Positions 11,805 through 52,572 are shown, numbered from the stretch's first letter. The stretch is DNA of 64,000 nt from Candidatus Poribacteria bacterium (GCA_963666305.1 OY762722.1:3478432-3542431), one strand, 5' to 3'. Numbers and translations: made by a program. The notes: generated by a model not told the origin, from the letters alone.

Positions 11805-11805
11805 T

Positions 11806-13182: not shown

Positions 13183-13216
13183 TTTTTTCAAAAACGCCCT
13201 ACGGAACTCACTGTAT

Positions 13217-13999: not shown

Positions 14000-14109
14000 T
14001 TCGTTGTCCTTGTTACCGTTAAAAATTAATTGGACACTTTCAAGCAATTCCTAATGCTGTTATCGTGCACTGGACAGGCACAAACTAACAGTTTATGCTA
14101 AAAATCTGA

Positions 14110-22028: not shown

Positions 22029-22166
22029 GCTACCCTCCGTTACAATGCGTGTTGAAGTTATAGTAAAGCCCGAAAATAAGTGGGCACCCTCTAAAACACA
22101 AAACACCTCACCGCCGCTGGCGAGGTTTGATGAAGTTTAAGTATTTAATTCGGTAATATTTATCTT

Positions 22167-22433: not shown

Positions 22434-22543
22434 AAAATGTCTGTTTATTTTTCAGGTTTACCATAGTATGTAGATAGCTCCCAGAAACCGTGTGAGCACT
22501 CAATCGCCTCTTCAGCCCCGTAGGGGCGGTATCTGTGTAGCCT

Positions 22544-24370: not shown

Positions 24371-24385
24371 CGGAAACCTCTCTTT

Positions 24386-30764: not shown

Positions 30765-30830
30765 TTTTACTCTCCTTGTATAAATAGGCTTACGTTGAAT
30801 TTGCAAGTATTATCTGTCTTGTTGATTTAA

Positions 30831-30967: not shown

Positions 30968-32392
30968 TCAGATATCGGAACGGAAGAATTTTAGGAACGC
31001 CACTGCCGTAAACGCTAAAGCAAAAAAACCGAGTAAGCACACATCTACTGCAGAGCGACGCAAGGTATCCGATAAAGAAGGTTCCGTCACGGTTGGTGGT
31101 GGTGGAATTTCTTCTGATTCGGAAAGATTATTCCGCTGTCGATCCATTATTTGTACGACCTGTGCCATCACGTCGTCTGAAATTCCACTGAAATATGAAT
31201 CATCAAGTTGCTTGTAGTATCTCTCACCCGTTTGAAAGTAGGTGTCCCTTTTTAGTTTACCGGTTTGCGTTAAGTTTATCGCAGAATAGATGAGAGAGGA
31301 CGTTGGCACGAGCCGAGAGAGCACTTCTCCAATGTGCTCTTGGCGATCCTTTTCGCGTTGGTATCCGTTGTCAATTTTGTTTGCCTGATTCTGGAACTTC
31401 AGTCGAGATTCCTCGTTAATCGGTTTCCGAATCTTGTCCAATCTTTTTTGCACCTCTGGTGTTATCGCCAAATTCGTCCCAAAAATTTCAAATATTTTTT
31501 TATTCAACTTCTCTTGTTTCTCTTTCGCCAGGTTATTGCGAAGTGCGGTTTTTTCCATATAAACAGTCTGCTGCGTTCGGGTGGGTGAGACGAGTTTTGC
31601 TACGATAAACGCCCCTCGTGGTGCAATTAGCACCGCAAACACCCAAAATGTAAAAGCGACAATCAGCGCGGTCTTGGCGTTGTCGAGATACGTTGAAATG
31701 ACGACACCTATCGCAAAAAAGACCGCAATATAGAGCAGCGAGACAAGCGTTAGACCGAGCACTGGCATCGCGATCTTGAGCTCACCGAGTGGAAACCCTT
31801 GCCAGACGATCAGGAGTAACCCCAAAAGGAAAGAGACTAAAAACGGAAGAACGAACACAATGTATCCACCGATCAGCTTGCTCCACAAAAACACATCTCG
31901 AGGAACGGGGTTTGACAAGTTTATCCGAAGGGTGCCTGCTTCTCTCTCCCCCGCAACAGCATCAAATGTGAACAGAAGTGCCAGCAGACTGAAAACCGTC
32001 CCAACAATAAACAGGAAGTCCAGATTTCCTAATACATACGCGAGCGGTGCTTGCGCAAGTGCTGTTGAACCCGGCCGAATGCCATTACGCGTCATTCCAA
32101 GATGGGTCGGCAGCACTTCCTCTAAACCGTTTGCGAAGACGCTCAGCGGCATGGGCTTGAGGAAAAGCTTGGAAACTTCTACATCCGGATCTTGCGCATT
32201 CGGTGGATTTACCTTTGCTTCTGATCGTGAGCGATTCACCGATTCTTGATAATCTGTCAAACTCTGACGATGCTTGCGATAACTGATAGAAAGGGTGAGT
32301 GGGATGAGCAAAGCACACATCAGCAAGAGCGCGATGAACCGGACGCTCAAAATGTGGTGCATAATTTCTTTCTGAATCAATGTTATTAACAC
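30968..32392 (-). CDS. ABC-2 family transporter permease (orphan paralog of 41254..42696)
   Basis: Its N-terminus (MLITLIQKEIMHHILSVRFIALLLMCALLIPLTLS) is almost identical to that of 41254..42696. It has a large extracytoplasmic loop and then five TM segments. There is no adjacent ATPase gene. Confidence 0.65.
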   Translation of the reverse strand: MLITLIQKEIMHHILSVRFIALLLMCALLIPLTLSISYRKHRQSLTDYQESVNRSRSEAKVNPPNAQDPDVEVSKLFLKPMPLSVFANGLEEVLPTHLGMTRNGIRPGSTALAQAPLAYVLGNLDFLFIVGTVFSLLALLFTFDAVAGEREAGTLRINLSNPVPRDVFLWSKLIGGYIVFVLPFLVSFLLGLLLIVWQGFPLGELKIAMPVLGLTLVSLLYIAVFFAIGVVISTYLDNAKTALIVAFTFWVFAVLIAPRGAFIVAKLVSPTRTQQTVYMEKTALRNNLAKEKQEKLNKKIFEIFGTNLAITPEVQKRLDKIRKPINEESRLKFQNQANKIDNGYQREKDRQEHIGEVLSRLVPTSSLIYSAINLTQTGKLKRDTYFQTGERYYKQLDDSYFSGISDDVMAQVVQIMDRQRNNLSESEEIPPPPTVTEPSLSDTLRRSAVDVCLLGFFALAFTAVAFLKFFRSDI

Positions 32393-32431
32393 GGTAATTT
32401 CTCCTCTGTTTTTTAGTTCTTAACCGTTTCG

Positions 32432-32566
32432 TTAGTCGTCTAATTTAAAACGTAACACACCACTACCATAGGTGCCAACATAAAGCACGTTCCCCTCAAC
32501 ATCGAGAGCACTAACAGGACTCGGAATCTCGGGTGTCATCTGTTTCCATCTGTCAGAATTTGTTTT
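32432..32566 (-). other. In-frame continuation encoding the conserved C-terminal tail of the fused-sigma family, located after the TAA stop of 32567..35392
   Basis: It translates to KTNSDRWKQMTPEIPSPVSALDVEGNVLYVGTYGSGVLRFKLDD*. This is collinear with the tails of paralogs 1 and 4 (...NTWKQATPEIPGSVISFTVDGNILYVGTANRGVLRFNLDE). Confidence 0.6.
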
Positions 32567-35392
32567 TTATTGATAGACGCGTTGTTCCGTAACGCCATAC
32601 AGAGTTGTTCCGCTCACCGCAAATTGGTCTATAACGATTGGCACACCTTCAGGGTCGGATGTAACGTGCCAGTGCGTGCCATCGCTTGAATATGCAACCC
32701 CTCCATCGGTTGCCACGTAGATAGCGGAGCCAGCGAATTCTATTGCCTTGAAATGTGTAAAAGAAAACGGAAGTTCGCCCGTAACATCGTTCCACGTATC
32801 TCCTTCGTCAAACGACTGGAAGAGGTGTCCGTCTAATTTAGCGACGTAGACAGTTCTCCTTGAAACAGCGATTTTGAAACCGATGGAACTGGGATTGTTA
32901 AAACTGCCAACCGTATCAATGAGTTCACCTTCATCTATGAGCCCGGTATCAACCCATTCCGGCGTGCCGGGTTTCCACCTGAAGAGTCTCTGTTCATATT
33001 CCATATAGTACGTATTACGACTGACAGCGAAACCTCCGAGAAGTCCACGCATCAGCTGCCGGATATCTTCCACGGCCTTATTGTCATCTCCAGCAACATC
33101 CACATCTAAAGAGGCGTTTTTCCTTAAAAACGACATCCCCGGAATAGGGCTTAACCGATCGTCCTCGGTAGATAAGCGCAAGAGTTGAACGCGATGTTCG
33201 GTGTCTCCTATACCTCTGGCATAGAGCAGATCGTTGAATTTCGCCAGATTCGTGATGTTTCCGAGGCTGCTTGGGACAGGTGTCCACACCTCATCCCCCT
33301 TGGACGAGGCGAGAAGTTCGCCCCCCACATTGGCATACAGCACATTCCGCACAGAAACTAAATTCATCACGCTTGTATTTACCAATCCCGTGCTAAATGG
33401 ATGCCACGTTTTGCCGGCATCGGTTGTGCGATAAATCCCAGACGCTCCGTTCCGATAGAAGGTATTCGCATTCAAAGACACAAGCTTGGAAACATCTCTT
33501 ATGTCTGGTATATTTGAATCCAAGGTAACCCAGTTTTCACCTGCGTCACTTGAGTAATAACTGCCTTTATCGTCCATTGCGAAAAGGCTTTCTTCCACTG
33601 CTACCATTTTGAAGGTTGAAGTCGTTTTCGTTTCTGAGTCTTTGGGTTTATCCTTACCCTTTTGGTAGGATTCCGAAGTTCCAGAAGCAACATGAATCGT
33701 CAGTCCATCTTGGGAGGATGGCTCTATTTTCCTTTTTATAAAGTCTAATGTCTGCCACGAATCTCCCAAATCTGTTGAGCGATATAGGGACAGAGATGTC
33801 GCGGATATCAGTCGCGCTGGCAGACCAAACCCGACCCCTTGATTCACAGCCTTTTCCCCCACGGCGACATAGAGTCGATGCTCGGCACTCGCCACTGCAC
33901 GGATATTCTGGGATTCACCCACCGATAATAAGGTGCTGCCTTCCGAATTGAGGCGATACAGTCCAGAGTCCGTCCCAACAAACACAACATTTTCAACGGC
34001 TGTGATTGCGCGAATTTCTTTCTTCACCAACTGTCCGCTTACGGACACCCACGAGTTACCAGCGTCCACAGAACGGAATACACCATTAACAAGTGCCAAG
34101 TACATTACAATATTGGCTTGCGCCCCAGGTGCTTCATCTGTTATGACGAGATCAATCAACTGACCCACTGGACGTGTACCGAGTGTATCCCACGTCTCGC
34201 CTCTGTCCATTGAAGCGCGGATTTCTGTATCGGAGGCAACGTAGAGGGTATCGTCCGTCTCTATTATTTGCCATGATCCGTTAGGGGGCATGTTGGCGTT
34301 GACAAGGTTCCACCGACTTCTATCGTCCGTCAATCTATAGAGGTCGGTACCTGTCCCGACGTAAGAATCTCCGTTAGCTGCGATGAACAAGTTCTGAACG
34401 CCGCCACCTTCGGGTCCCCCGGTTTGGGTCCACTGCGGTTTCGGGGTTGAGACTTCTGTCGTGTCGATGGGGAGTGTGGCAACAAGGGATTCGTCCGGTT
34501 TCTGAGCTGCCCCAGGACTTTTACCGGGGAGTGCCGAACTTCCTGCCTGAGTCCGCACTGCGGGTTTCGCAGGGAAATCGTAAATAAAAACTGCGTCAAT
34601 AATCTTAACTGTCGGTTCCGAGGTGGCATCAAGGTTATAAGGCTTCTGAAAACGAGAGAGATGCTGCGTGCCAATCCCAATCAGTAGGAAAAGCACGACG
34701 GCTGAGACAACGGAAAGTGCCAACGGGACTACCGGCTTACCTGTAGGAACAGAAACCGGACTCAGACGTGAAACTTCCCGCATGATGTTCTCTGTTAATT
34801 GATCCGGGAGTTGGAAACTGCCAAGATTCTGATGGAGTATATCTTTCTCTTTTCGTAAACGGTTGCGAGCGCGGCTCAGGCGGCTTTTGATGGTATTCTG
34901 GGAGACACCGAGAAACTCAGAAATGGATTTGACCGTCATCTCGCCAAGGTAATGGAGCGTCATCACTGTCCGCTCGCTTTCGGGCAGTGTCTGGAGGAGC
35001 TTCTTAACGACTTCACGGCGCGTCTCATTGGCTTCGGCTGCCTGTTTTTCTGCTATATACTGAGAATATGAAACCCTGTCTATCTCATTAGTCTCGGTAG
35101 CCTCTACGGATTCCAGCACCGGCATGCGATTCTTTCGGAACCAGTCAGCACACAAGTTTGCCGCAATAACGTAGAGCCAACCTGAGAACTGGTTATGGTT
35201 TTTCAAGGTTCCGAGTTTTTTATACGCAGTGAGAAACGCGTCTTGCGTGATTTCTTGGGCAATATGAAAATCACCGATCTTCCGCCACACCAGCGCGTGA
35301 ACCCCTTTCTGATATTTTTTCACTAAGGTACTGAATGCCTCCTGGTCCCCCTGTAATACCCGCCAAATGAGTTGAGCATCGTTTTGTTCCAC
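32567..35392 (-). CDS. Fused ECF sigma factor - TM - Asp-box beta-propeller protein, paralog 3 (941 aa as called, GTG start; ends at an in-frame TAA)
   Basis: The N-terminus is (V/M)EQNDAQLIWRVLQGDQEAFSTLVKKYQKGVHALVWRKIGDFHIAQEITQDAFLTAYKKL. The HTH is TVMTLHYLGEMTVKSISEFLGVSQNTIKSRLSRARNRL. A TM helix and Asp-boxes (SMDRGETW, SVDAGNSW, STDLGDSW, SSDAGENW, TTDAGKTW, SFDEGDTW) follow. A GGAGGAGG RBS lies 6 nt upstream of the GTG. Confidence 0.75.
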   Translation of the reverse strand: MEQNDAQLIWRVLQGDQEAFSTLVKKYQKGVHALVWRKIGDFHIAQEITQDAFLTAYKKLGTLKNHNQFSGWLYVIAANLCADWFRKNRMPVLESVEATETNEIDRVSYSQYIAEKQAAEANETRREVVKKLLQTLPESERTVMTLHYLGEMTVKSISEFLGVSQNTIKSRLSRARNRLRKEKDILHQNLGSFQLPDQLTENIMREVSRLSPVSVPTGKPVVPLALSVVSAVVLFLLIGIGTQHLSRFQKPYNLDATSEPTVKIIDAVFIYDFPAKPAVRTQAGSSALPGKSPGAAQKPDESLVATLPIDTTEVSTPKPQWTQTGGPEGGGVQNLFIAANGDSYVGTGTDLYRLTDDRSRWNLVNANMPPNGSWQIIETDDTLYVASDTEIRASMDRGETWDTLGTRPVGQLIDLVITDEAPGAQANIVMYLALVNGVFRSVDAGNSWVSVSGQLVKKEIRAITAVENVVFVGTDSGLYRLNSEGSTLLSVGESQNIRAVASAEHRLYVAVGEKAVNQGVGFGLPARLISATSLSLYRSTDLGDSWQTLDFIKRKIEPSSQDGLTIHVASGTSESYQKGKDKPKDSETKTTSTFKMVAVEESLFAMDDKGSYYSSDAGENWVTLDSNIPDIRDVSKLVSLNANTFYRNGASGIYRTTDAGKTWHPFSTGLVNTSVMNLVSVRNVLYANVGGELLASSKGDEVWTPVPSSLGNITNLAKFNDLLYARGIGDTEHRVQLLRLSTEDDRLSPIPGMSFLRKNASLDVDVAGDDNKAVEDIRQLMRGLLGGFAVSRNTYYMEYEQRLFRWKPGTPEWVDTGLIDEGELIDTVGSFNNPSSIGFKIAVSRRTVYVAKLDGHLFQSFDEGDTWNDVTGELPFSFTHFKAIEFAGSAIYVATDGGVAYSSDGTHWHVTSDPEGVPIVIDQFAVSGTTLYGVTEQRVYQ

Positions 35393-35747: not shown

Positions 35748-36347
35748 CTATTGTAGGTAGGGGAGCAGCAGAGTCTGGAGTCTTTGACGGGCATGGTGCA
35801 AATATGTTTTAACGGTGCTTTCCGACTTGTCTAAGTGTGAGGCAATCTCTTTTATCGGGAGGTCCTGCAAGTAACGCAAACGAAAAGCGCGACGTTGTCC
35901 AGATGGCAGTCGATGCACAGCACTACGGATAACGCGTCCAAGTTCCTCCTCCTCAAGAATCTGACAAGGTGATGACTGCTTTTGGAGCATCGGGAGGCAA
36001 TCGTCGGCGTTTTGTGGTAATGTCTCACACGCAAAAACGATTTCCCTATCTCGTTTGCGGAGGAAATCAATACTACAATTGACAGCAATTTGGTAAAGCC
36101 AACTATAAAATACGGATTGTCCCTTGAAGTTCGGCAGTGCCTGCCACGCCTTCAAGAACACTTCTTGGCAAAGGTCTTCCGCTGTCTCGCGATCCCGAAC
36201 CTTACGGTAAATCAAATTATAGATTTTTTGCTGATATTTGTATACGAGTGGGTTAAACGCCTCTGTATCGCCATTCTGCGCACGCGCCACAAGTTCCGAC
36301 TCATTGAAATCGTTGCGTTCAGGGTGTATTGTTAAATCACTTCGCAT
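35748..36347 (-). CDS. Stand-alone ECF (RpoE-like) RNA polymerase sigma factor, 199 aa
   Basis: Region 2 is DLCQEVFLKAWQALPNFKGQSVFYSWLYQIAVNCSIDFLRKR. Region 4 is QRRAFRLRYLQDLPIKEIASHLDKSESTVKTYLHHARQRL. No anti-sigma gene is adjacent. Confidence 0.8.
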   Translation of the reverse strand: MRSDLTIHPERNDFNESELVARAQNGDTEAFNPLVYKYQQKIYNLIYRKVRDRETAEDLCQEVFLKAWQALPNFKGQSVFYSWLYQIAVNCSIDFLRKRDREIVFACETLPQNADDCLPMLQKQSSPCQILEEEELGRVIRSAVHRLPSGQRRAFRLRYLQDLPIKEIASHLDKSESTVKTYLHHARQRLQTLLLPYLQ

Positions 36348-36401
36348 AGTTTTCTCCTTGTTTAGTAGTTGTCAGCAGTGAGGTTATCGTTTAACAAAAG
36401 T

Positions 36402-36445
36402 CTCTTTACTGATTGCTGATTGCTGACACCTGACGGCTGATTGCT
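36402..36445 (-). promoter_or_regulatory. Tandem-heptamer leader element (GTCAGCAATCAGCAATCAGTAAAGAGAC in gene orientation) upstream of the ECF sigma gene
   Basis: It shares the downstream 24 nt (CTGCTGACAACTACTAAACAAGGAG, including the RBS) exactly with the leader of 52578..53582. Related copies lie at 37899..37944 and 52447..52572. Confidence 0.45.
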
Positions 36446-37820
36446 ATTCAATCCATTGCATTGTTTCTCGGAGTTGTTCCTTTGCTTTGGCGTAATCTCG
36501 GCGCGCCTGATAAAAGACGCGTTGTGCTTCTGTGAACTGCGCTTGTGTTTGAAATGCATCGTTGTAAGTCATATTTTGATACCCCGGTATTTCAACCGTG
36601 ACCTCATCAAGCACGCGTTCTATGGTTCGTAACCTTTGCTCAAAAATCCGCACGCGTGTTTCTTCGATCTCCGCCCGTTCTCTGGCATTTGCCACCTCAC
36701 GATAGGCGCGTCGCACCGCGACACGGATTGACTTTGTTTTTTCGATATACGTCAAGTGCAACCGCTCCAGTTCTGCGATTTCTACAGCGCGGAGATTTTT
36801 CGTCTTGTTTCCATCGTAGAGCGGGATATTGAAGTTGAAACGCAGTTCCCACCCGTCTCGTGTTCGCGGACTGGTTTGAAAAATGCTTGACGCATCTCGC
36901 TCGCGATCGAGTATCACTGGATCATAGAGTGCCTTTGCGTCCCATGTTTGGTTCTGCTGATGTTGCTCGAGCAACACATGGAGATCCTTGTAGCGCGCTT
37001 CGGCAGAGAGTTCGGGGAATCGGTGCCAGAGTGTCTCTGCGGCGAGACGTTCTTGACGGAGCATATCGCCTTGTAAGTCGCGTAAACCAAGGTTGCTTGC
37101 GAGCGCGAGTTCAACAGCGGTTTCCAGGGTCAGATCGTCTTCAGGGAGCGGTTGTGAGAGCGTCACTTCTGAAAGTGGATCAAGTCCAGTGAGACGAATG
37201 AGTTCTGCGGTGTCCACGTCAAGTCGCCGTTGGAGTTCGTTGAGGGCGAGTTGCTGTTCGGAGAGTTCAAGTTCCGTATTGAGGCGACTGAGGAAAGGGA
37301 TCCGTTTCTCTGCGTGCTTGATTTGTGTGCCTTTGAGTTTTTTATTCAGTTCTACCTCAATCGCACGCCGTTCCTGAATCTCTTCCTGTGTGAGGATGAT
37401 ATTGTTCCAGAGATTACGAACATCGTGAACGCTCTGCTTTCTCACGCGTTCGTATTCAATCTCTGCCTTTCGGACTTCCTCCTGTGTGGCATCGAGACCT
37501 TCGGGGATCTCACCGAACTGGGCGAGAAGCATACTTGCCTGTGCGCGGGTGAGATAATCTCTTTCATCAATATCGCCATCTTTCTGGCGTTGATATTCAC
37601 CGGTGAGTCCAACTTGTGGCAGATAAACAGCCTTAGACACACGGAGGTTCGCCTTGGCACGTTCCACCACTTTTTCCGCTTTTTTCACCGCTTCGTTGTT
37701 CTGTAGAGCGAGCTCGATGGCGCGTGTAGGTTGTAGCGCGACGAGTCGTTGTCCTTGAGCAGAAACATCCACAATACTCAAAAGTAAACAGATTATGAAA
37801 ACCATCAATTCTTTGTTCAT
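36444..37820 (-). CDS. TolC-family outer-membrane efflux protein
   Basis: A signal peptide (MNKELMVFIICLLLSIVDVSAQ) is followed by TolC-like helical repeats (LALQNNEAVKKAEKVVERAKANLRVSKAVYLPQVGLTGEY..., and a second repeat with ...RAVEIAELERLHLTYIEKTKSIRVAVRRAYREV). The likely start is the ATG at 37820, preceded by GGAG. Confidence 0.7.
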   Translation of the reverse strand: MNKELMVFIICLLLSIVDVSAQGQRLVALQPTRAIELALQNNEAVKKAEKVVERAKANLRVSKAVYLPQVGLTGEYQRQKDGDIDERDYLTRAQASMLLAQFGEIPEGLDATQEEVRKAEIEYERVRKQSVHDVRNLWNNIILTQEEIQERRAIEVELNKKLKGTQIKHAEKRIPFLSRLNTELELSEQQLALNELQRRLDVDTAELIRLTGLDPLSEVTLSQPLPEDDLTLETAVELALASNLGLRDLQGDMLRQERLAAETLWHRFPELSAEARYKDLHVLLEQHQQNQTWDAKALYDPVILDRERDASSIFQTSPRTRDGWELRFNFNIPLYDGNKTKNLRAVEIAELERLHLTYIEKTKSIRVAVRRAYREVANARERAEIEETRVRIFEQRLRTIERVLDEVTVEIPGYQNMTYNDAFQTQAQFTEAQRVFYQARRDYAKAKEQLRETMQWIE

Positions 37821-37898
37821 TACAATCTCCATTATGTTGGCAGTCAGCCGTCAGTAGGGCGTGTGACGATTACAATCGTTTTCCCTCCGCCACAACGC

Positions 37899-37944
37899 TC
37901 TCTTTACCGATTGCTGATAGCGAAGCGGCTGATTGCTGACACCC
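37899..37944 (-). promoter_or_regulatory. Tandem-heptamer leader element copy upstream of the TolC-like gene
   Basis: In gene orientation: GTCAGCAATCAGCCGCTTCGCTATCAGCAATCGGTAAAGAGAG. Confidence 0.4.
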
Positions 37945-37949
37945 ATTCC

Positions 37950-40262
37950 TCAACGTCGGCTGATGCGGATTGTGACGATAACGATCCCAATCATCAGGAG
38001 TATCAACGCACCGAACAGCAGCGTCGTCACCGACATTTGCGTCTGAGACTCGACTTGTACAGTGATCGAACGGTCGCGTGCCTCAAATTTACGGTTATCG
38101 ACAGTGACTTCCGCATTCAACTTCGCTTGATATTCCCCTACACCGATGTCCGCAGGTGGACGCAACGTCAGTTGGATATCTGTTTCCTCGTTCCGTTTGA
38201 GTGAACCAATGACTTCAGGGATCACCGTGTATTTCCAATCCGTGTTGACATCGACAAGCATACGAATATCGACGAGATCGCGGGTACCGATGTTCTTTAG
38301 CGTCGCTGTCATGTTGACTTCTTCGCCAATTTTAATCGTCTGGAATGCGTTCGGCACGAATACCTCAATCTCCGGCACCCCCTTTGGAATCAGTTCAAAC
38401 CGTTCGACACCGCCTTGGATACCCGAAATCCTATCAGCGGGTAACTCCAACCGATTGTTAACACCCCCAAGTTCAGTGGCTTCCGCGTCATCAATCACGG
38501 CGACGTAGAACTCAAGCGTGCTGTCGAGATACGACGCATCCAATTCCTCTGGTAGATAGACAATCAACGACAGATTCCGCTTCGACTGTTCCTGCGTGAA
38601 CTTCACCTGTGACTGGCGAGATTTTGTCTCTGGATCTTGGAATTCAAAGGAGAGACGATTTAGCAGGTTAATGACGCGCAACTGGAATGTATTCTCCGTT
38701 TCTGCCAACCGATCGAGCGTCAAGTCGTAGGTGACGCTGCTTCCCAAGTTCCCTTCCTGCGAGAATCGGAGTGAGCTGACATTGACCACATCGAGTGCGG
38801 ATTCTTTTTGGAGATAGATGAGTCGCGTGTCGGGTTCGGCAAGTTCGGGGTATTTCAGCGATACCTTCAGACTCTCGACATCTTTCTGAAGTTGGAACGT
38901 CAGTTCCACGGTTTCATTGTAACCAAGGACTGGTATCTTCTCTTCATACGGCTTGACGATATTCGTATCATCGATAACGTCGAGTAAGGAGATATAAATC
39001 CCACGGATCTCATTCGCCGCGGCGATCTCTTCAGGTGTCGCGTTGATCGGCATTGCTTCTGTCGTTGACGTGTTTTTTAATTGGATTGTCACCATCATTT
39101 GCCCACCTGTATTACTGGCGATACGAAACTTCTTCGCACTCAGGATAGAGATATGACGTGTGTCCTCCTCAAGATGGATTTTATAGGGGATTTCCTGATC
39201 GAGGTATTTCAGGCTGACAATGAGACTATCAACATTTCGCCGGAGTTCAAAATCGAGAGTTTTCTCCTGTCCATCTTTGAGTGTCGGAATGCGATATTCA
39301 TAAGGAAAGCCGATGATAGATTCCGTATCATCTTTGATGGAGACATAGACATTGTTGATTTCTTGTGCCGTTGCTTCTTCCGAGTAACCGGCGGAGGTAC
39401 CGGTGCCTGTTTCTTCTGTTTCGCCATTGATTGCACCATACGTGAGCACGACTTCCAGATACCGCCGATCCCCCTGTTTGTAGCGCCTCGCAGACACGAC
39501 AGAGATATACGGATCCTCCTGTTTCAGATGGATGTTCTTCTGGTCCTCGCGCCCTGAGTACGTCAACGCTACAACGACATCTCGCACATTCTCTTTTATC
39601 AGCTCAAACTCCAAAGTGATAGATTCACCCTCTTTGAGCGTCTCAATGCGTCGTTCGTAAGGTTCAGTGATAATCGCTCCACTGGCACCATAACTTTCCT
39701 GTTCTTTAATCGAGACGAAGATATCGTCAATCTGTGCGCTGATAATAATTTCTCGTTCCAGCACTTTCGAGCTTTCAATGAGTTTGACGGGAGATGAGCT
39801 ATTCCGCAAAGTGATTGAGAACAACTCCCGACCATCGACGGATTCATACAGTCTTGTCTCTTCAACGGTGATATGCCACTCATCTTGTAGCGATTCAAGC
39901 TCTACCTGTTGGAGCGTCAATTTTGCCTGTTCATATTCATCGACAGCACGTTCGTAAGCCTCCTCGGCTTTATTGACTTCGGAGACAGTAACGATGTTGT
40001 TGTCCTCCATCATCATCGCCTTGAGGTTTTCAAGGTCAATCTGCTTTTTATTCATCAGTTTTTCTGCCAATTCCATTTTCAAACGCTCGACTTCTATCAG
40101 GATTTGGCGACTCTGTTCCTCTTTCGTTTTTGGATCGTTCCCATTGGCAAGCGAAACATCTTCGGATTCCGCTGCGGGTAGGGGCGAGGTCACCTCGCCC
40201 GTACTGAACAGCGATATCCCTATCACGCTAATGAAAACAATTGTAAGTATATTGGTTCGCAT
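37950..40262 (-). CDS. Large secreted repeat protein (770 aa) with N-terminal coiled coil, three or more ~120-aa beta-sandwich-like repeats, a NEW3/CARDB-like domain and a C-terminal TM anchor (COG1470-like)
   Basis: A signal peptide is followed by a coiled coil (ILIEVERLKMELAEKLMNKKQIDLENLKA). Internal repeats are present (EPYERRIETLKEGESITLEFELIKENV / FPYEYRIPTLKDGQEKTLDFELRRNV / KPYEEKIPVLGYNETVELTFQLQKDV). The NEW3/CARDB-like block is ATLKNIGTRDLVDIRMLVDVNTDWKYTVIPE...GEYQAKLNAEV. The C-terminal anchor is TLLFGALILLMIGIVIVTIRISRR. Confidence 0.55.
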   Translation of the reverse strand: MRTNILTIVFISVIGISLFSTGEVTSPLPAAESEDVSLANGNDPKTKEEQSRQILIEVERLKMELAEKLMNKKQIDLENLKAMMMEDNNIVTVSEVNKAEEAYERAVDEYEQAKLTLQQVELESLQDEWHITVEETRLYESVDGRELFSITLRNSSSPVKLIESSKVLEREIIISAQIDDIFVSIKEQESYGASGAIITEPYERRIETLKEGESITLEFELIKENVRDVVVALTYSGREDQKNIHLKQEDPYISVVSARRYKQGDRRYLEVVLTYGAINGETEETGTGTSAGYSEEATAQEINNVYVSIKDDTESIIGFPYEYRIPTLKDGQEKTLDFELRRNVDSLIVSLKYLDQEIPYKIHLEEDTRHISILSAKKFRIASNTGGQMMVTIQLKNTSTTEAMPINATPEEIAAANEIRGIYISLLDVIDDTNIVKPYEEKIPVLGYNETVELTFQLQKDVESLKVSLKYPELAEPDTRLIYLQKESALDVVNVSSLRFSQEGNLGSSVTYDLTLDRLAETENTFQLRVINLLNRLSFEFQDPETKSRQSQVKFTQEQSKRNLSLIVYLPEELDASYLDSTLEFYVAVIDDAEATELGGVNNRLELPADRISGIQGGVERFELIPKGVPEIEVFVPNAFQTIKIGEEVNMTATLKNIGTRDLVDIRMLVDVNTDWKYTVIPEVIGSLKRNEETDIQLTLRPPADIGVGEYQAKLNAEVTVDNRKFEARDRSITVQVESQTQMSVTTLLFGALILLMIGIVIVTIRISRR

Positions 40263-40347
40263 TTTTAATTAATCCTGTCGTTATAATTGGGTATCCGATT
40301 CGCCAAATCTTGGTTTGACGAATCGGTTGGTTTGTGTCGCGAGCACA

Positions 40348-41082
40348 TTATGCGGCTGTGTCATCCGCAGGTTCGTATCCAGCAACGTAATGCAGATACA
40401 ACGCCTCGAGATCCTCTTTTAGAATTTCTTCGCGCGTTAGCTCCCGTTCAAGATTGCCTTGCACCAGAATACCGATTCTGTCAGCAACCTCCTTCGCACG
40501 GAAGATGTCGTGTGTAGACATAAAGATAGATTTCCCTTCCTCCTTTAGTTCACGGAGTAGATGCAGGAAATCGGCACCCCCCTTCGGATCCAAGCCGGAG
40601 GTCGGTTCATCAAGCAGGACGGCTTGTGCGTTTTTCATGATCGCAATCGCAATGCCCAAGCGTTGACGCATCCCCTTGGAGAAGGTCTTGACGCGCCGTG
40701 TAAAGGCTTCTTCCGGCAGGCCGACGCGTCCGAGTGTCGCATCGAGCTCCTCGTTTGATATCTTTTTGCGTCCGCCGAGTTTCGCGAAGAAGGACAGATT
40801 TTGCCGTGCTGTAAAGTTGCGATAGAGTTCCACATTCTCAGAAACGTAAGCGAGATGCTTCTTCGCTTCGAGTGGGAACTTCGGAATCTCAATGTCACCT
40901 ATCAATGCAGTGCCGCTTGTCGGTTCGATGAAGTTAAGTAGCATTGAGATGGTCGTGCTTTTCCCGGCACCGTTCGCACCGAGGACGACATAGATTTCAC
41001 CGTCGTCCACTTTCAGGTTCAATTTATTCAAGGCTAAGACACTTTCGTTATAGACTTTCGTAAGATCACGGGTTTCTAACAT
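40348..41082 (-). CDS. ABC transporter ATP-binding protein (ABC-2/CcmA-like)
   Basis: Walker A is GANGAGKST, the signature is FSKGMRQRLGIAIAIM, and Walker B is VLLDEPTSGLDP. It lies immediately downstream of the ABC-2 permease 41254..42696. Confidence 0.85.
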   Translation of the reverse strand: MLETRDLTKVYNESVLALNKLNLKVDDGEIYVVLGANGAGKSTTISMLLNFIEPTSGTALIGDIEIPKFPLEAKKHLAYVSENVELYRNFTARQNLSFFAKLGGRKKISNEELDATLGRVGLPEEAFTRRVKTFSKGMRQRLGIAIAIMKNAQAVLLDEPTSGLDPKGGADFLHLLRELKEEGKSIFMSTHDIFRAKEVADRIGILVQGNLERELTREEILKEDLEALYLHYVAGYEPADDTAA

Positions 41083-41253
41083 GGGTTTCTCCTTAGGTTA
41101 TTTTTTCCGCTTTATAATTAAGGATACAATTTTGAGGCAGAATGGGTGCATCGTGGAATGGTTAAGGGTATCAGTTATCGGTAAAGAGGTTTTCGTTTAG
41201 CCATATCCCTCTTTAACCGAAAACTGAAGACCGACGACCGATAACCACTCACA

Positions 41254-42696
41254 TTAAATATCGGAACGGAAGAACTTCAAAAACGCCACGACTGTGAACA
41301 CCAGTGCGAAAAAACCGAGTAAGAACACATCCACTGCGGAGCGGCGCAATGTGTCCGATAAAGCAGGTTCTATTAACATTGGTGGCGGCAGGATTTCGTC
41401 TGTTTCGGATTCAGAAGAATCATTCACTCGATTCATCACTTGTAGCATCTGTGCCATCGCGTCGTCTGAAATTGTGCTGAAATATGTATCATCAAGTTGA
41501 TCATAGTACCGCTCGCCCGTTTGAAAGTAGGTATCCCTTTTTAACGTGCCGGTTTGTGTGAGGTTCATTGCAAAATAGGTGAGTGAAGACGTTGGTGCGA
41601 TCCGGGAGAGCATCTCACCAACCTGCTCTTGCCGATCCTTTTCGCGTTGATAGTCCCTGTCAATTTTACCCGATTGATTCTGGAACTCCAGTCGAAACTG
41701 TTCATCAATCGGGCCTCTGAGTTTATCCAACCTTTTTTGCGTCTCTGGATCGTTTAGGTTAATACGAACACTACCGCCGCTCTCAAAAGCTAAAGCCATT
41801 TTTTTGTTAATCTTGTCTTGCTTATCTTTCATGAGGTTATTGTGAAGTGCGCTTTTTTCCATATAAACAGCCTGCTGTGTCCGAGTGGGTGCGACGAGTT
41901 TCGCGACGACAAACGCGCCTCGCGGCGCGATCAGCACTGCAAATACCCAAAACGTAAAAGCGACAATGAGCGCAGTCTTGGCGTTGTCGAGATACGTTGA
42001 AATGACGACACCTATCGCAAAAAAGACCGCAATATAGAGCAGCGAGACAAGCGTCAGACCCAGCACCGGCAGTGCAACCTTAAGCTCACCGAGCGGAAAT
42101 CCCTGCCAGACGATTAGGAGCAACCCCAAGAGGAAGGATACCAAAAAGGGAATGACGAACACGATGTATCCACCGATCAGCTTGCTCCACAGAAACACAT
42201 CTCGGGGAAGCGGATTTGACAGATTTATCCGGAGCGTGCCTGCCTCTCTTTCTCCGGCAACAGCATCAAATGTGAACAGAAGTGCCAGCAGGCTGAAAAC
42301 CGTCCCGATAATAAACAGGAAATCAAGGTTCCCGAGTGCATACGCCACGGATGCCTGAGAAATCCCTGCTGAACCTTGTCGAACGCCATTACGCGTCATC
42401 CCAAGATAGGTCGGCAGTGCTTCTTCTAAACCGTTTGCGAAGACGCTCAAAGGTGTAGGTTTGAGGAAGAACTTAGAGACTTCCACGTTTGGGTCCTGTG
42501 CGTTCGGTGGATTCTCCTTTGCTTCTGCGCGTGTGCGTTTTACCGATTCTTGATAATCTGTCACATTCTGGCTATATCTACGATAATTGATGGAAAGGGT
42601 GAGCGGGATGAGCAGCGCACACATCAGCAAGAGTGCGACGAACCGGACGCTGAGAATGTGATGCATAATCTCTTTTTGAATCAATGTCGTTAACAT
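41254..42696 (-). CDS. ABC-2 family transporter permease
   Basis: It is a paralog of 30968..32392 (MLTTLIQKEIMHHILSVRFVALLLMCALLIPLTLS..., with a C-terminal ...AFLKFFRSDI shared). It has multiple TM segments and is paired with the ATPase 40348..41082. Confidence 0.7.
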   Translation of the reverse strand: MLTTLIQKEIMHHILSVRFVALLLMCALLIPLTLSINYRRYSQNVTDYQESVKRTRAEAKENPPNAQDPNVEVSKFFLKPTPLSVFANGLEEALPTYLGMTRNGVRQGSAGISQASVAYALGNLDFLFIIGTVFSLLALLFTFDAVAGEREAGTLRINLSNPLPRDVFLWSKLIGGYIVFVIPFLVSFLLGLLLIVWQGFPLGELKVALPVLGLTLVSLLYIAVFFAIGVVISTYLDNAKTALIVAFTFWVFAVLIAPRGAFVVAKLVAPTRTQQAVYMEKSALHNNLMKDKQDKINKKMALAFESGGSVRINLNDPETQKRLDKLRGPIDEQFRLEFQNQSGKIDRDYQREKDRQEQVGEMLSRIAPTSSLTYFAMNLTQTGTLKRDTYFQTGERYYDQLDDTYFSTISDDAMAQMLQVMNRVNDSSESETDEILPPPMLIEPALSDTLRRSAVDVFLLGFFALVFTVVAFLKFFRSDI

Positions 42697-42771
42697 GGTA
42701 ATTTCTCCTGTGTTTTTTACGTGAGTTCGGTTGCATCTCTTTTACCGAACTCACGTTATTGTAGATTGAAG

Positions 42772-44088
42772 TCAATTGAGGGATAATACGTCAGCGGACA
42801 ACAATACCGATAGCTGCTGGAGTATATCCTGTCCCTCTTCGGTTTTTAGAAATTCTTCTCCGAGTTGCGCTTCAAGTTGCGACTGTAGTTGTACCTTAAT
42901 TTGATCCCCCACCTGCGGTATTGCTTCTTTGAGGATACTCATCCCCATTGGTGTTTGGAGAATGTCTTTTCCGAGTTGTGCTTCAAGCTGAGAAACAATC
43001 TCTTTCTCCAAGGCATTCAGCAGTTGTGGTACGAATTTTTTCAGGACTAATTCTTCAGTTGCCTGCTTGAGTTTTTCTCTACCTTCTTGGGTCTTGAGAA
43101 ACGCGTTTCCGTGTTGTTTACGTAAGTCACGCACAATGTCAGCGAGCGCGGAGAATCCCATTTTGTTGCTATTATAGATGTCTCTTTGCGGACCGTTACG
43201 ATAGAGTTTTCCGCTGAGACTGAGGTTGAGACGATGGTGTTCACAGCGAACGATAGGGACCATATCACCTTCCTGTGTCCACAGCATTTGTTGACCGTCT
43301 TTCTCAGAAGGCCGAATCTCGTAGAGATAGCTGCACGGAAGTGTTGGATCCGCAGCATCTTCGGTGAGAACTCCAGGGACTCCTGCTGTTGGATCTGCTG
43401 GACAAAGGATTACGTTCTTCTCCAAATATTGCGGAGAAAGATCGGAAAGCCATTGTGGGTCTGTATCTGCATTGGAAGTCCTATAGTCATCACGGGCGCG
43501 TTTTATCAGCCTCAAATTTTCTCTGCACGTCTCAATACCTTTGGAAGCCTCAGAACTTTGTTGCGCTGAGAGTGAGGCAAGTTCGTGCGGATAGGCATCT
43601 GCTAAGAGGCACCGGTTTAGGCGAATCAACGCTTCCCCACTTTTCGGGTTTTCTGCGATGAGTACCTGCGTCTGTTCACTGAGTTCAATATTGGCGAACC
43701 GTTGCGTATCGTAGAGAGAACTCCCTTGAAGCAGCTGATTTAGGTCTGAAAGCAATACTTCTTGCTGCTGAGCGGAAGGGGTGCTTGTGCCGTTGTATCC
43801 GAGTAGCACCCACTGCATATCTTCGGACAATTGCGATGCAATCCATTCGGACACCGGTGCACGCGTGTCTTGGAGTTTCACAATCAAACTGCCAGGGTCC
43901 TTAATCGCATCCGCATCCAAGAGGTGCTGAGGTGTGCCTGCATGGAGCGGCGGTTGGATTGCCATTGCCATGAATAGAATTGTGAGCAAGGTTGTCGCAC
44001 AAACGGTTAATTTGTGTAATCTGTGTCGCAAACTAAAAGTTTGCGCTACAATTGGTCTGGAGGGTCGAATCGTTTTTAACATTTTCAA
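42772..44088 (-). CDS. Secreted hypothetical protein with C-terminal amphipathic repeats
   Basis: A long N-terminal signal/anchor is present (TVCATTLLTILFMAMAIQPPLHA). The C-terminal repeats are LEAQLGKDILQT.../LEAQLGEEFLKTEEGQDILQQ. Confidence 0.5.
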   Translation of the reverse strand: MKMLKTIRPSRPIVAQTFSLRHRLHKLTVCATTLLTILFMAMAIQPPLHAGTPQHLLDADAIKDPGSLIVKLQDTRAPVSEWIASQLSEDMQWVLLGYNGTSTPSAQQQEVLLSDLNQLLQGSSLYDTQRFANIELSEQTQVLIAENPKSGEALIRLNRCLLADAYPHELASLSAQQSSEASKGIETCRENLRLIKRARDDYRTSNADTDPQWLSDLSPQYLEKNVILCPADPTAGVPGVLTEDAADPTLPCSYLYEIRPSEKDGQQMLWTQEGDMVPIVRCEHHRLNLSLSGKLYRNGPQRDIYNSNKMGFSALADIVRDLRKQHGNAFLKTQEGREKLKQATEELVLKKFVPQLLNALEKEIVSQLEAQLGKDILQTPMGMSILKEAIPQVGDQIKVQLQSQLEAQLGEEFLKTEEGQDILQQLSVLLSADVLSLN

Positions 44089-44132
44089 AATCTCCTTTTT
44101 TGTTTGTTTTCGGTTTTAACTATCGTTAATTG

Positions 44133-47100
44133 CTAATTAATTTTAAAACGTAACACACCACTGCCAGCGGTACCGACATAAAGCACGTTCTCCTCAACAG
44201 CAAGAGAGGTAATAGGCATTGGGATTTCCGGGGCAACCTGTTCCCACACACCAGTATTCTCTTTCAATCGATACACGTGTCGCTCGCTTGTCCCATACAG
44301 CGTTGTCCCGCCTATTGCAAACCTTTCTATAAGGATAGGCGCGCCTTCTGTATCCGTTGTTGCGTGCCAGTGAACGCCATCATTGGAGAACGCAACTCCC
44401 TTATCGGTCGCGACATAAACGGTGGATCCTGTAAAGGTTACTCCCTTGAAATGTGCAACAGGAAAGGGGAGGCTCGCCGTAACATCGTTCCACGTATTTC
44501 CCTCATCAAACGATTGGAAGAGATGTCCATCCCATTTACCGACGTAGATAGTACTCCCTGAAACCGCAAGGTTGGAAGGGAGGGAATCAGGATTGTTAGC
44601 GCTGTCAATCATATCGACAGGAAGTTCATTGATGAGTCCGGTATTCACCCATTCAGTTGCGCCGGCTTTCCATCTGAAGAGTCTTTGCTCATACTCCATA
44701 TAGTAAGTATCACCACTGACAGCGAAACCCCCGATAACCGACCTCACAATTTCACCCAGGAGCTCCTCTAAGGCCGGACTATAGTCTTCAACAAATGCCT
44801 CCATATCTAAATCTTCAAGGATATTATCTTCAAGGATGTTTTGCTGTCCGTCAGTCTGGTCTGTTACTGGCAGAATTTCCTTGAAACGTTCTTCCATCAG
44901 CTTGGTATAGTCTGTCTCCTTTAAAAATGGCATACCCGGAACAGACGTTAACCGATTATCCTCGGTAGATAAGCGAAAGAGGCGGGGGTGAGGTGTCGTG
45001 TCGTCTATAGCTCTGGCGTAGAGCAGATCGTTGAATCTCACCAACTGAATAATGTTTCCGAGGCTGCTTGGAACAAGTGTCCATGACTCGCCCGCATTAG
45101 ATGAGGTGAGAAGTGTGCCTCCGACGTTAGCATAGAGCACATTCTGCACAGAAACTAAATTCATCACGGCTGTCTTTACCAATCCAGCGTTAAACGGATG
45201 CCACGTTTTGCCGGTATCGGTTGTGCGATAAATCCCGGACTCTCCGTTCCAATAGAAGGTATTTGCATTCAAAGACACGAGCGTGGAAACATCTCCTATG
45301 CCCGGTATACTTGAATCCAAAGTAACCCAGGTGTCCCCTGCGTCATTTGAATAATAACCGTTTCCGTCGTCCACTACGAAAAGGTTGTCTTCCACTGCTA
45401 CCATTTCAAAGATTAAAGTCGTTTTCGTTTCTGCGTCCTTAGGACTCTCCTTGCCATTTTGGGCGGATTCCGGAGCTGCAGGTTCAACCCGAATCGTCAT
45501 GCTAACTTGGGGGGAAGGCTCTGTTTCTGTTTTTTTGTAGTCTAATGTCTGCCACGAATCTCCCAAATCTGTTGAACGGTACAGGGATAGAGATGCCTTC
45601 CATACTATTCGCGCTGGCAGCCCGAACCCAAAATCCTTGTTCACCACCTTGTCCCCCACGGCAACATAGAGTCGATACCCGGCACTTGCCAGTGCGCGGA
45701 TATTGCGGGTCTTATGGTCTTCATCCACCGGTAATAGCGTCCAATCTTCGGAACTACGGCGATACAGTCCAAAATCGGTCCCAACAAATACGACATCTTC
45801 AATAGTAGTGATTGCGCGGATTTCTTTGTTCACCAACTTCTCGCTTACGGGATCCCATGATTTCCCAGCGTCCACGGAACGGAATACGCCATCAACAAGT
45901 CCCAAGTACATTGTAATATCGGTTTGCTCTCCAGGGATCCCATCTGTTATGACGAGGTCAATCAGCTGTCCTTCTGGACGTGTGCCGAGTGAATTCCACG
46001 TCTCGCCTCTGTCCATTGAAGCGAGGACTTCCGTATCAGAAACAACATAGAGGGTATTCTCATGTTCTGTCATTTGCCATGACCCATTGATGGACATGTT
46101 GCTACTGACAAGCCCCCACCGACTTTTATCGTCCGCCAATCTATAGAGATCGGTATCTGTTCCGGCGTAAGAATCGCCGTTAGCTGCGATGAACAGGTTC
46201 TGCACGCTGCCACCTTCGGGGCCCTTTGTTTGGCTCCACTGAGGTTTGGGTGTTGGGACTTCTGCGGTGTCAATAGGCAGCGTAGCAACAAGGGATTCTT
46301 CGGATTTCTGTCCTTCCCCTGGACTTTTACCGGGGAGCACGGAACTTCCTGCTTGACTCCGTATTGCAGGTTTCGCAGGGGAATCGTAAACAAAAACCGC
46401 GTCAATAATTTCAACCGTCGGTTCCGATGTTGCATCTAAATTGTAAGGCTTCTGAAAACGGGAGAGATATTGCGTGCCAACACCCATCAGCAGGAAAAGC
46501 AAAACAGCCGAAGCCGCAGAAAGTGCCAAGGGTGCCACCGGTTTACTCACTGCAGGTGGCGGAACAGGGGACATACGCGAGACTTCCTGCATGATGTTAT
46601 CCGCTAAGGTATCAGGGAGTTGGAAGCTGCCAAGATTCTCCTGAAGCACGTCTTCCTCTTGCCGCAAACGGTTGCGTGCACGACTGAGTCGGCTCTTGAT
46701 GGTGTTCTGGGACACACCGAGAAACTCGGAAATGGATTTGATTGTCATCTCGCCAAGGTAATGCATCATCATCACCGTCCGCTCACTCTCTGGCAGCTTT
46801 TGGAGCAGTTTCTTGACGACTTCACGCCGTGATTCATCGGCATCGGCTGCCTGTTTTTCTGCTACATATCGAGAATATGACACTTTGTCCACCTCATTCG
46901 TATTGTCGGCATCTAAGGATTCCATCGGTAGGCGATTCTTTTTCAGATAGTCGCGACACAGGTTTGCCGCGATAACATAAAGCCATCCTGCAAATTGGTT
47001 ATGGTTTTTCAATGTTCGGAGTTTCTTATACGCGGTGAGGAACGCGTCTTGCGTAATTTCTTGTGCGATATGAAAATCACCGATCTTCCGCCACGCAAGT

Positions 47101-47198
47101 GTGTGAACCCCTTTCTGATATTTCTTGACCAAAGGACTGAGCGCGTCCTGATCTCCCTGTAGTATACGTTGGATGAGTTCAACATCGGTGTGTGCCAT
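44133..47198 (-). CDS. Fused ECF sigma factor - TM - Asp-box beta-propeller protein, paralog 4 (1021 aa)
   Basis: The N-terminus is MAHTDVELIQRILQGDQDALSPLVKKYQKGVHTLAWRKIGDFHIAQEITQDAFLTAYKKL. The HTH is TVMMMHYLGEMTIKSISEFLGVSQNTIKSRLSRARNRL. A TM helix and Asp-boxes (SMDRGETW, SVDAGKSW, STDLGDSW, SNDAGDTW, TTDTGKTW, SSNAGESW, SFDEGNTW) follow. Confidence 0.8.
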   Translation of the reverse strand: MAHTDVELIQRILQGDQDALSPLVKKYQKGVHTLAWRKIGDFHIAQEITQDAFLTAYKKLRTLKNHNQFAGWLYVIAANLCRDYLKKNRLPMESLDADNTNEVDKVSYSRYVAEKQAADADESRREVVKKLLQKLPESERTVMMMHYLGEMTIKSISEFLGVSQNTIKSRLSRARNRLRQEEDVLQENLGSFQLPDTLADNIMQEVSRMSPVPPPAVSKPVAPLALSAASAVLLFLLMGVGTQYLSRFQKPYNLDATSEPTVEIIDAVFVYDSPAKPAIRSQAGSSVLPGKSPGEGQKSEESLVATLPIDTAEVPTPKPQWSQTKGPEGGSVQNLFIAANGDSYAGTDTDLYRLADDKSRWGLVSSNMSINGSWQMTEHENTLYVVSDTEVLASMDRGETWNSLGTRPEGQLIDLVITDGIPGEQTDITMYLGLVDGVFRSVDAGKSWDPVSEKLVNKEIRAITTIEDVVFVGTDFGLYRRSSEDWTLLPVDEDHKTRNIRALASAGYRLYVAVGDKVVNKDFGFGLPARIVWKASLSLYRSTDLGDSWQTLDYKKTETEPSPQVSMTIRVEPAAPESAQNGKESPKDAETKTTLIFEMVAVEDNLFVVDDGNGYYSNDAGDTWVTLDSSIPGIGDVSTLVSLNANTFYWNGESGIYRTTDTGKTWHPFNAGLVKTAVMNLVSVQNVLYANVGGTLLTSSNAGESWTLVPSSLGNIIQLVRFNDLLYARAIDDTTPHPRLFRLSTEDNRLTSVPGMPFLKETDYTKLMEERFKEILPVTDQTDGQQNILEDNILEDLDMEAFVEDYSPALEELLGEIVRSVIGGFAVSGDTYYMEYEQRLFRWKAGATEWVNTGLINELPVDMIDSANNPDSLPSNLAVSGSTIYVGKWDGHLFQSFDEGNTWNDVTASLPFPVAHFKGVTFTGSTVYVATDKGVAFSNDGVHWHATTDTEGAPILIERFAIGGTTLYGTSERHVYRLKENTGVWEQVAPEIPMPITSLAVEENVLYVGTAGSGVLRFKIN

Positions 47199-52446: not shown

Positions 52447-52572
52447 GCAGCCAGCAATCAGAAATCGGCAATCAGTAAAGAGACTCTCGTTAAACAATAA
52501 CCTCTTTCACTGACTGCTGAAAGGATTTTTGAAAAAATCCGCCCTGATTGCTGACAACTACTAAACAAGGAG
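52447..52572 (+). promoter_or_regulatory. Tandem-heptamer leader element (longest copy, with internal 8-bp hairpin) upstream of the Gfo/Idh/MocA gene
   Basis: The sequence is GCAGCCAGCAATCAGAAATCGGCAATCAGTAAAGAGACTCTCGTTAAACAATAACCTCTTTCACTGACTGCTGAAAGG-GGATTTTTGAAAAAATCC-GCCCTGATTGCTGACAACTACTAAACAAGGAG. The last 24 nt are identical to the leader of the ECF sigma gene 35748..36347. Confidence 0.45.

Follow-up and report, generated by a model that had tools for sequence, protein, structure and literature searches.

Gene content of the locus

The stretch of DNA analysed here, to which we refer as the window, comprises 64,000 nucleotides (nt) from a sponge symbiont, a Candidatus Poribacteria bacterium (GCA_963666305.1, OY762722.1:3478432-3542431). 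Our subject is a group of four co-oriented open reading frames (ORFs) on its minus strand, which encode a permease of the ABC-2 type (ABC, ATP-binding cassette), an ABC ATPase, a protein of 770 amino acids (aa) and an outer-membrane factor resembling TolC (OEP; Table 1). A first-pass annotation of the same sequence had likened these genes to a tripartite efflux system in which the adaptor position is occupied by the 770-aa protein instead of a canonical member of the HlyD/membrane fusion protein (MFP) family. All four ORFs lie where it had placed them; the OEP start that it gave (37820) is the second in-frame ATG, the first being at 37832. The comparison with tripartite pumps is backed by two lines of evidence, namely the conservation of the gene neighbourhood across phyla and the similarity of an α-helical hairpin in the 770-aa protein to the hairpins of MFPs.

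Table 1. Position, strand and basis of assignment of the four-gene module, of the domains of the 770-aa protein and of further features in the window.
Feature	Residues	Coordinates	Strand	Basis
ABC-2 (type V fold) permease, 480 aa		41254..42696	-	Pfam ABC2_membrane_2, hydropathy
ABC ATPase (nucleotide-binding domain, NBD), 244 aa		40348..41082	-	Pfam ABC_tran
770-aa hairpin/β-sandwich/NEW3 protein, putative non-canonical periplasmic adaptor		37950..40262	-	Pfam, AlphaFold2 (AF2), alignment, profile search
N-terminal hydrophobic segment, Sec signal peptide or signal anchor	1-26	40185..40262	-	Hydropathy
Disordered linker	~18-45			AF2
Antiparallel α-helical hairpin, MFP type	47-128	39879..40124	-	AF2, profile search
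Three homologous immunoglobulin-like (Ig-like) β-sandwich repeats	129-250, 251-369, 370-490	38793..39878	-	Pairwise z-scores, AF2
β-sandwich D4	491-629	38376..38792	-	AF2, alignment; no Pfam match
NEW3 (NPCBM_assoc) β-sandwich, membrane-adjacent	630-740	38043..38375	-	PF10633
C-terminal transmembrane (TM) helix ending Arg-Arg	741-770	37953..38042	-	Hydropathy, alignment, AF2
TolC-like outer-membrane factor (OEP), 462 aa, N-terminal signal peptide		36444..37832	-	Pfam OEP
Extracytoplasmic function (ECF) sigma factor, 199 aa; possible local regulator, outside module core		35748..36347	-	Sigma70_r2/r4_2
Second ABC-2 permease, possible heterodimer partner		30968..32392	-	Pfam; 79% identity to 41254-42696
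438-aa protein, N-terminal TM or signal segment; optional accessory		42772..44088	-	No Pfam/NCBIfam match
Copies of the 20-nt repeat ATCAGCAATCRGTAAAGAGA		36401-36420	-	
		37899-37918	-	
		41170-41189	+	
		52464-52483	+	
Sigma-BNR fusions		44133-47198, 32567-35392, 26378-29209, 17441-20575	-	Pfam
Half-transporters, fused TM domain + NBD		22544-24370, 24386-26227	-	

Domain architecture of the 770-aa protein

The AF2 model of the 770-aa protein was built on an alignment of 41 sequences (mean predicted local distance difference test score, pLDDT, 76.5) and replaces an earlier one from a shallow alignment (pLDDT 57.7) in which the domain D4 was not resolved. In it, a hairpin of ~37 + 36 residues precedes five β-sandwich domains, and a TM helix (residues 743-769) closes the chain. 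The N-terminal coiled coil mentioned in the first-pass annotation is thus this two-helix hairpin (residues 47-84 and 93-128, pLDDT 85-93), and the C-terminal membrane anchor, which it had likewise described, is visible in the hydropathy profile. The repeats are all-β in the model (pLDDT ~65-88), and D4 reaches values of 78-92. Instead of "three or more" repeats of ~120 aa there are exactly three, whose pairs obtain Smith-Waterman z-scores of 16.5, 20.5 and 9.9 against shuffled sequences. No sequence similarity connects the repeats, D4 and NEW3 with one another, and the idea that the repeats are copies of NEW3 was rejected because the two lack such similarity.

The only Pfam family above threshold in the protein is NEW3 (PF10633, residues 644-719, 32.1 bits against a gathering threshold of 24.4), and no NCBIfam model matched. 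CARDB (PF07705), with which the domain had also been associated, stays below its threshold (20.6 versus 22.7 bits); its match overlaps that of NEW3, which has a related fold. Judged by its sequence, the 770-aa protein is a genuine NEW3-domain protein.

It is not a canonical adaptor. HlyD, biotin-lipoyl and BSH models gave no Pfam match at E<=1, and the membrane-proximal and β-barrel domains of canonical adaptors were looked for in the protein and not found. In the AF2 model the hairpin lies at the N-terminus instead of within a lipoyl fold, and in place of the N-terminal lipid or TM anchor of MFPs the conserved anchor is the C-terminal TM helix with its Arg-Arg (RR) end. By the lipoyl, β-barrel, membrane-proximal and N-terminal-anchor criteria the protein is outside the HlyD/MFP family, and the first-pass annotation was right in stating that the adaptor slot holds no such protein. 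Nor did the large ORFs that lie between 6 and 55 kb in the window include any HlyD-family adaptor.

Relatives of the 770-aa protein

Searched exhaustively, 1.84 billion cluster representatives yielded 416 relatives of the 770-aa protein at E<=1e-3, 141 of them at E<=1e-30. The best 120 homologues are poribacterial and 84-100% identical to it. Beyond these close sequences, the relatives are mostly ~480-560 aa long and 28-37% identical, aligning to residues ~410-770 and to the N-terminal hairpin. Such ~500-aa relatives consist of a signal peptide, the hairpin, one repeat, D4, NEW3 and a TM helix with a terminal invariant RR; since they share its architecture with a single repeat, the window protein appears as an expanded, three-repeat member of the family. 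Both R769 and R770 are invariant in the family alignment, and NEW3 was matched in all 41 aligned members. The most conserved motif of the family, S-[AVL]-[QR]-F-[SA]-Q-E-[GA]-x-L, lies at the start of D4 (SLRFSQEGNL in the window protein, residues 497-506) and served as the scan pattern for the genome search described below.

Besides Poribacteria, the family occurs in organisms named as Latescibacterota and Phycisphaerae, a breadth that is based on the names of a few proteins. Outside Poribacteria its members appear, as judged by eye, to carry cleavable Sec signal peptides of the classic AXA type (e.g. VNA|QG, LWA|QE, ASA|QA). The names they have so far received are "hypothetical" or "NEW3 domain-containing", in one case "uncharacterized membrane protein" (Joint Genome Institute, JGI), and searches of the literature turned up no work on the family.

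Arrays of NEW3/CARDB-type β-sandwiches are common in surface proteins, and the 770-aa protein could accordingly be a structural protein of the cell surface, similar to those of S-layers, or a cargo, which the ABC/OEP system assembles or secretes. We consider this very improbable. In a diderm cell, the C-terminal TM helix, which is invariant and would have its RR tail in the cytoplasm, would keep the protein in the inner membrane, and the putative export signal is of the Sec type and not a type-1 secretion signal. Moreover, a surface protein or cargo would have no role for an MFP-like hairpin, and the tandem pairs of paralogues that occur in other phyla (see below) resemble pumps with two adaptors. 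For surface-layer assembly, which the first-pass annotation had offered as an alternative, no supporting evidence was found.

Similarity of the hairpin to periplasmic adaptors

A hidden Markov model profile of 18 family hairpins was searched against all 177,635 distinct sequences of the PDB. It gave 27 matches at E<=10, of which 22 are periplasmic adaptors that align on their own α-hairpins, including a MacA/MexA chimera (2.2e-4), MexJ (2.2e-4), TriAB (2.5e-4), ZneB (4.2e-4), MexA (2.8e-3), EmrA (0.013), AcrA (0.06) and MacA (0.09-1.7). By contrast, a control profile of the reversed sequences, which retains composition and periodicity, gave seven matches (best 0.03), none of them to an adaptor. 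The tip of the hairpin reads L-x6-[ST] in 42 of 50 relatives, which we take to correspond to the Leu and Ser of the R-L-S (RLS) motif of adaptors, and a subset possesses the full R-x3-L-x6-S (e.g. FDRALKLKEEGLISEEDFA). Precomputed Pfam results contain a faint HH_EMRA match on one relative (P0273). Pfam searches with the isolated hairpins found no HlyD-hairpin family, and returned weak matches to the OEP coiled coil in 10 of the 18. The values are weak singly and specific jointly, and as far as profile similarity goes they are compatible either with homology to the TolC-docking hairpin or with close convergence on it.

Conservation of the gene neighbourhood

Genomes of the GTDB were scanned with the D4 motif, and the best 80 of 263 relatives gave the poribacterial loci, almost all of which are labelled Poribacteria; contigs were looked up via the paralogues P0017 and P0015 instead of the window protein and P0001. 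In all 78 of these loci that could be assessed, the OEP gene directly follows the NEW3 gene. The ATPase gene lies less than 400 nt upstream in 67 of 76 loci, and within 1.5 kb in eight of the other nine, while one to four permease genes are found upstream in 56 of 65. Other neighbours are less constant: an ECF sigma gene comes after the OEP in 26 of 73 loci (it is absent from the distant relatives' loci examined), and the 438-aa protein is encoded upstream in 18 of 65. One genome harbours two paralogous loci with a common ATPase-NEW3-OEP-sigma core, one having a single permease and the other three.

A second set consists of eight loci with relatives of 29-35% identity, including Latescibacterota and Phycisphaerae. 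All eight encode the same permease subfamily (one case checked by BLASTP, 4e-29). The 240-aa ATPase is present in seven, the eighth being cut by a contig end, and an OEP gene is adjacent in six. The OEP stop overlaps the start of the adaptor gene in five of these six; the overlap measures 4 nt in three of them and 20-29 nt in the other two. Three distant loci, from Latescibacterota and two others, possess two tandem paralogous adaptors of identical architecture. Gene order changes between phyla, with OEP-adaptor-ATPase-permeases as opposed to permease-ATPase-adaptor-OEP in the window, so that the linkage is more than inherited synteny. Recurring in 80 poribacterial and eight distant loci, the four-gene arrangement is confirmed as being far beyond chance.

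It could nevertheless be argued that the genes lie side by side but do not work together and are transcribed separately, that the hairpin is a generic coiled coil and that the likeness to a pump is superficial. Indeed, the spacers of the module measure 85-171 nt, and each contains a predicted stem-loop (z -2.2 to -4.6). No U-tract follows any of them, and the linkage is kept across at least three phyla despite changes in gene order and with overlapping genes. The profile matches of the hairpin are furthermore specific to adaptors, with a negative control. We therefore give this explanation hardly any weight.

As for the spacers themselves, scans for consensus promoters and terminators gave no matches above chance, and the window yielded no match in Rfam and tRNA scans. 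Between the ATPase and NEW3 genes (40263-40347, minus strand) there is a perfect 13-bp hairpin, CCGAUUCGUCAAA/UUUGGCGAAUCGG (z -3.2), and between the permease and ATPase genes (41120-41253, minus strand) a long one (z -4.6); neither has a U-tract, and both may be elements of mRNA processing or stability. A dispersed intergenic repeat of 20 nt, ATCAGCAATCRGTAAAGAGA, occurs in four copies in the window where none is expected, and every copy is located shortly past a stop codon, inside a predicted stem-loop region.

Two further observations arose from the comparison of loci. Outside Poribacteria, a HEAT_2 protein, often with CBM9, is encoded beside the permeases of the module in four of the eight loci (L005, 8651-9706 and 13008-14411; L006, 1-1291; L089, 12197-13558; and the locus of P0301) and may be a further accessory component. 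In addition, a contig of 123 kb labelled "MAG: Nitrosopumilus sp." (MAG, metagenome-assembled genome; CBDCWS010000001.1, our L031) carries a poribacterial locus with 85% protein identity to the window, and has probably been mis-binned in the public MAG.

Permease, ATPase and outer-membrane channel

The permease matches ABC2_membrane_2 (PF12679) with 113.5 bits (cut-off 27.2; 1.4e-32) and has six hydrophobic/TM segments. Its first periplasmic loop comprises ~80 aa, and the helix-rich loop between TM5 and TM6, with a sub-threshold match to DUF3526, ~180 aa. A second permease is encoded elsewhere in the window (Table 1); because relatives in other phyla have two permeases, it may pair with the first, and presumably belongs to the same system. 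The ATPase (ABC_tran, 103 bits, 2.2e-29) has its closest solved relatives in NBD1 of the eukaryotic lipid transporters ABCA3, ABCA4 and ABCA1 (4e-58 to 6e-51), and its closest solved prokaryotic relative in NosF (3e-34). Members of the type-V class of ABC transporters typically handle hydrophobic or lipid-linked substrates, or perform mechanical work in the periplasm. On the strength of sequence similarity, the ABCA/NosF-like ATPase and the NosY-like permease place the predicted motor of the module in this class. The OEP matches PF02321 with 119.6 bits (1.8e-34) in two tandem repeats, preceded by an N-terminal hydrophobic segment (residues 1-28). It stays below the cut-offs of TIGR01844 and NodT and has no phmmer match in the PDB, and is therefore regarded as a divergent member of the TolC family.

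The only solved relative of the permease is NosY (1.5e-4), which together with the similarity of the ATPase to NosF brings up a different explanation, in which the 770-aa protein would serve the ABC-2 transporter as an accessory subunit in the periplasm and make no contact with the OEP, comparable to NosD with NosFY or GldG with GldAF. The ATPase would then work the array of β-sandwiches, which would capture, modify or hand over a substrate of the periplasm or envelope, and the OEP would be separate or have another partner. Sub-threshold matches of the ATPase and permease to GldA and GldF point in the same direction, as do the variable number of repeats and the observation that in the distant loci the permease is more tightly linked (8/8) than the OEP (6/8). 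One cluster representative (P0253), which by Pfam is a permease-adaptor fusion, either real or due to a frameshift, also joins the permease to a NEW3 protein. The accessory-subunit explanation has to account for the OEP gene being adjacent in all 78 testable poribacterial loci and often overlapping the adaptor gene in distant ones, and it leaves the specific similarity to TolC-docking hairpins unexplained. Pfam and NCBIfam searches detected no NosD-like β-helix or GldG-like domain. We regard it as rather unlikely.

Comparison with known systems

Characterised adaptors of tripartite efflux and type-1 secretion systems share the same set of domains, i.e. hairpin, lipoyl, β-barrel and membrane-proximal (PMC8277102). 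The ~500-aa relatives, with a hairpin and three β-domains, have as many modules as a canonical adaptor (PMC8277102, section 7.3), but the two differ in their folds and are opposite in polarity. Among individual systems, MacAB-TolC resembles the module in having an ATP-driven ABC transporter of the inner membrane with sizeable periplasmic loops, a TolC-family duct encoded alongside, and an adaptor that is anchored by one TM helix and whose α-hairpin is similar in sequence to ours. The permease of the module, however, is of the ABC-2/type V kind (PF12679) and not of the FtsX/MacB kind, and its putative adaptor has five Ig-like β-sandwiches, including NEW3, instead of lipoyl, β-barrel and membrane-proximal domains. 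In addition, its hairpin is N-terminal and its anchor C-terminal, which is the reverse of MacA.

ABC-2 permeases are no strangers to tripartite systems. In Escherichia coli, YbhGFSR is an ABC-2-type tripartite system with a canonical HlyD-family adaptor. The HP1486-HP1489 system of Helicobacter pylori is another example of ABC-2 permeases that work with an adaptor, canonical and of the HlyD family, and an OEP (PMC9570263). In both, ABC-2 permeases (usually two), ATPase, adaptor and OEP are encoded together, and the two-permease layout recurs in the relatives outside Poribacteria; the difference is that the slot of their normal MFP is filled here by the hairpin-β-sandwich-NEW3 family. TriABC-OpmH (PDB 6vej) requires two different adaptors, which is reminiscent of the tandem adaptor pairs in three of the relatives' loci, and the hairpins of TriAB are among the best profile matches (2.5e-4). 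Unlike the module, it contains a pump of the resistance-nodulation-division type and canonical four-domain adaptors, whereas in the window there is one adaptor gene, in which the repeat is triplicated.

NosDFY (PDB 7o0y), to which the permease and ATPase are related through NosY and NosF, provides a precedent for ABC2_membrane_2 permeases that drive a large periplasmic protein. It possesses neither an OEP nor a hairpin protein; conversely, the module has no NosL and, by Pfam, no match to the NosD β-helix, and its similarity to NosY is weak (1.5e-4), so that it does not belong to this system. It does not belong to GldAFG either, with GldA at 136 bits against 402.6, GldF at 25.8 against 288.5 and no GldG-like protein. 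Finally, the first-pass annotation had likened the 770-aa protein to COG1470 proteins. Membrane proteins of the NEW3/COG1470 type are found beside ABC-2 transporters in archaea and Gram-positives. The likeness seen consists of NEW3 followed by a C-terminal TM helix and of the ABC-2 neighbourhood. What sets the diderm family described here apart is its hairpin, its repeats, D4 with the SxQFSQEGxL motif, and its OEP partner.

A putative non-canonical adaptor for an ABC-2 exporter

We consider it likely that the four proteins act together. How they do so is less certain, and with modest confidence we favour a reading in which the 770-aa protein acts as a periplasmic adaptor of non-canonical, "inverted" design, through which a type-V ABC-2 exporter is coupled with a channel in the outer membrane. 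As to topology, oligomerisation, physical bridging and substrate, we infer the following arrangement. In the inner membrane a dimer of the ATPase would power the ABC-2 (type V fold) permease, which may act as a homodimer or be paired with its 79%-identical paralogue. The N-terminal signal sequence would direct the adaptor to the Sec pathway for export, and the C-terminal TM helix would keep it anchored to the inner membrane with its RR tail on the cytoplasmic side. NEW3 and D4 would then be positioned at the membrane, beside the periplasmic loops of the permease, and the three Ig-like repeats would form a stalk, at the far end of which the MFP-type α-hairpins, as an oligomer, could dock on the periplasmic tip of the TolC-like OEP. 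Movements of the permease driven by ATP would expel the substrate through the OEP. Given that the ATPase is ABCA/DrrA-like, a hydrophobic, lipid-like or amphipathic substrate is the most plausible.

Several observations weigh against such a coupling. The E-values of the hairpin are weak (best ~2e-4), and similarity between coiled coils arises easily by convergence; the Pfam hairpin and HlyD models do not match the window protein, whose hairpin tip has Met in place of the Leu and a loop that is longer by two residues. The N-terminus of the window protein is possibly an uncleaved anchor, and the geometry between domains in the AF2 model is unreliable (predicted template-modelling score 0.36). 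The number of repeats varies from one to three in the family while the OEP lengths stay similar, which is awkward for a rigid spacer. In P0253 the hairpin is only ~10 residues away from a TM segment, which, if the fusion is real, opposes a membrane-distal position of the hairpin. Lastly, the locus of one distant relative contains no OEP within 7 kb.

With greater reserve we suggest that the family as a whole could be an unrecognised class of adaptors, in which a C-terminally anchored Ig-like stalk (NEW3, D4 and one to three repeats) bears nothing but the hairpin of an MFP. Its members would link TolC-like channels with type-V ABC-2 exporters in Poribacteria, Latescibacterota, Planctomycetota and uncultured diderms related to them. 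If this is true, tripartite pumps were assembled at least twice, on different adaptor scaffolds and with the same docking hairpin, and the hairpin would be a transferable module, with the remainder of the adaptor being replaceable. The ABC-2 transporters of several poorly studied phyla would then own a separate route across the outer membrane, and hundreds of proteins now named "hypothetical" or "NEW3 domain-containing" would be given a function. In Poribacteria, where the module is duplicated and located among ECF-sigma genes, it points to a capacity for export or efflux that may matter for life inside sponges.

Other features of the window

The surroundings of the module contain four paralogous proteins of ~940-1040 aa, in which a complete ECF sigma factor (regions 2 and 4) is fused, via a TM segment, to a large extracytoplasmic β-propeller of the BNR/Sortilin type (Table 1). 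Two of the four are 68% identical. As every one of these sigma-BNR fusions precedes a transporter module, they could be membrane-tethered units that combine sensor and sigma factor in one protein. The pair of sigma-BNR fusion and ABC-2 permease occurs twice, owing to a tandem segmental duplication (30968-35392 versus 41254-47198); no separate ATPase goes with the second permease.

Further transporter genes comprise a MacB-type permease (MacB_PCD + FtsX, 20772-22106, minus strand) beside two half-transporters of ~610 aa with fused TM domain and NBD; no HlyD-family adaptor adjoins this set (20772-26227). A 478-aa protein (29370-30806, minus strand) matches AhpC/TSA-redoxin at its C-terminus only (residues 338-458), its first ~330 residues being without Pfam match. 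A duplicated set of genes at 6380-16134 (minus strand) includes DUF4159 at 7284-8012 and 13217-14047, proteins of the Omp85 superfamily at 8164-10620 (with DUF4252) and 14110-16134, together with a pair of PA14-domain proteins at 10632-11804 and 11806-12960.

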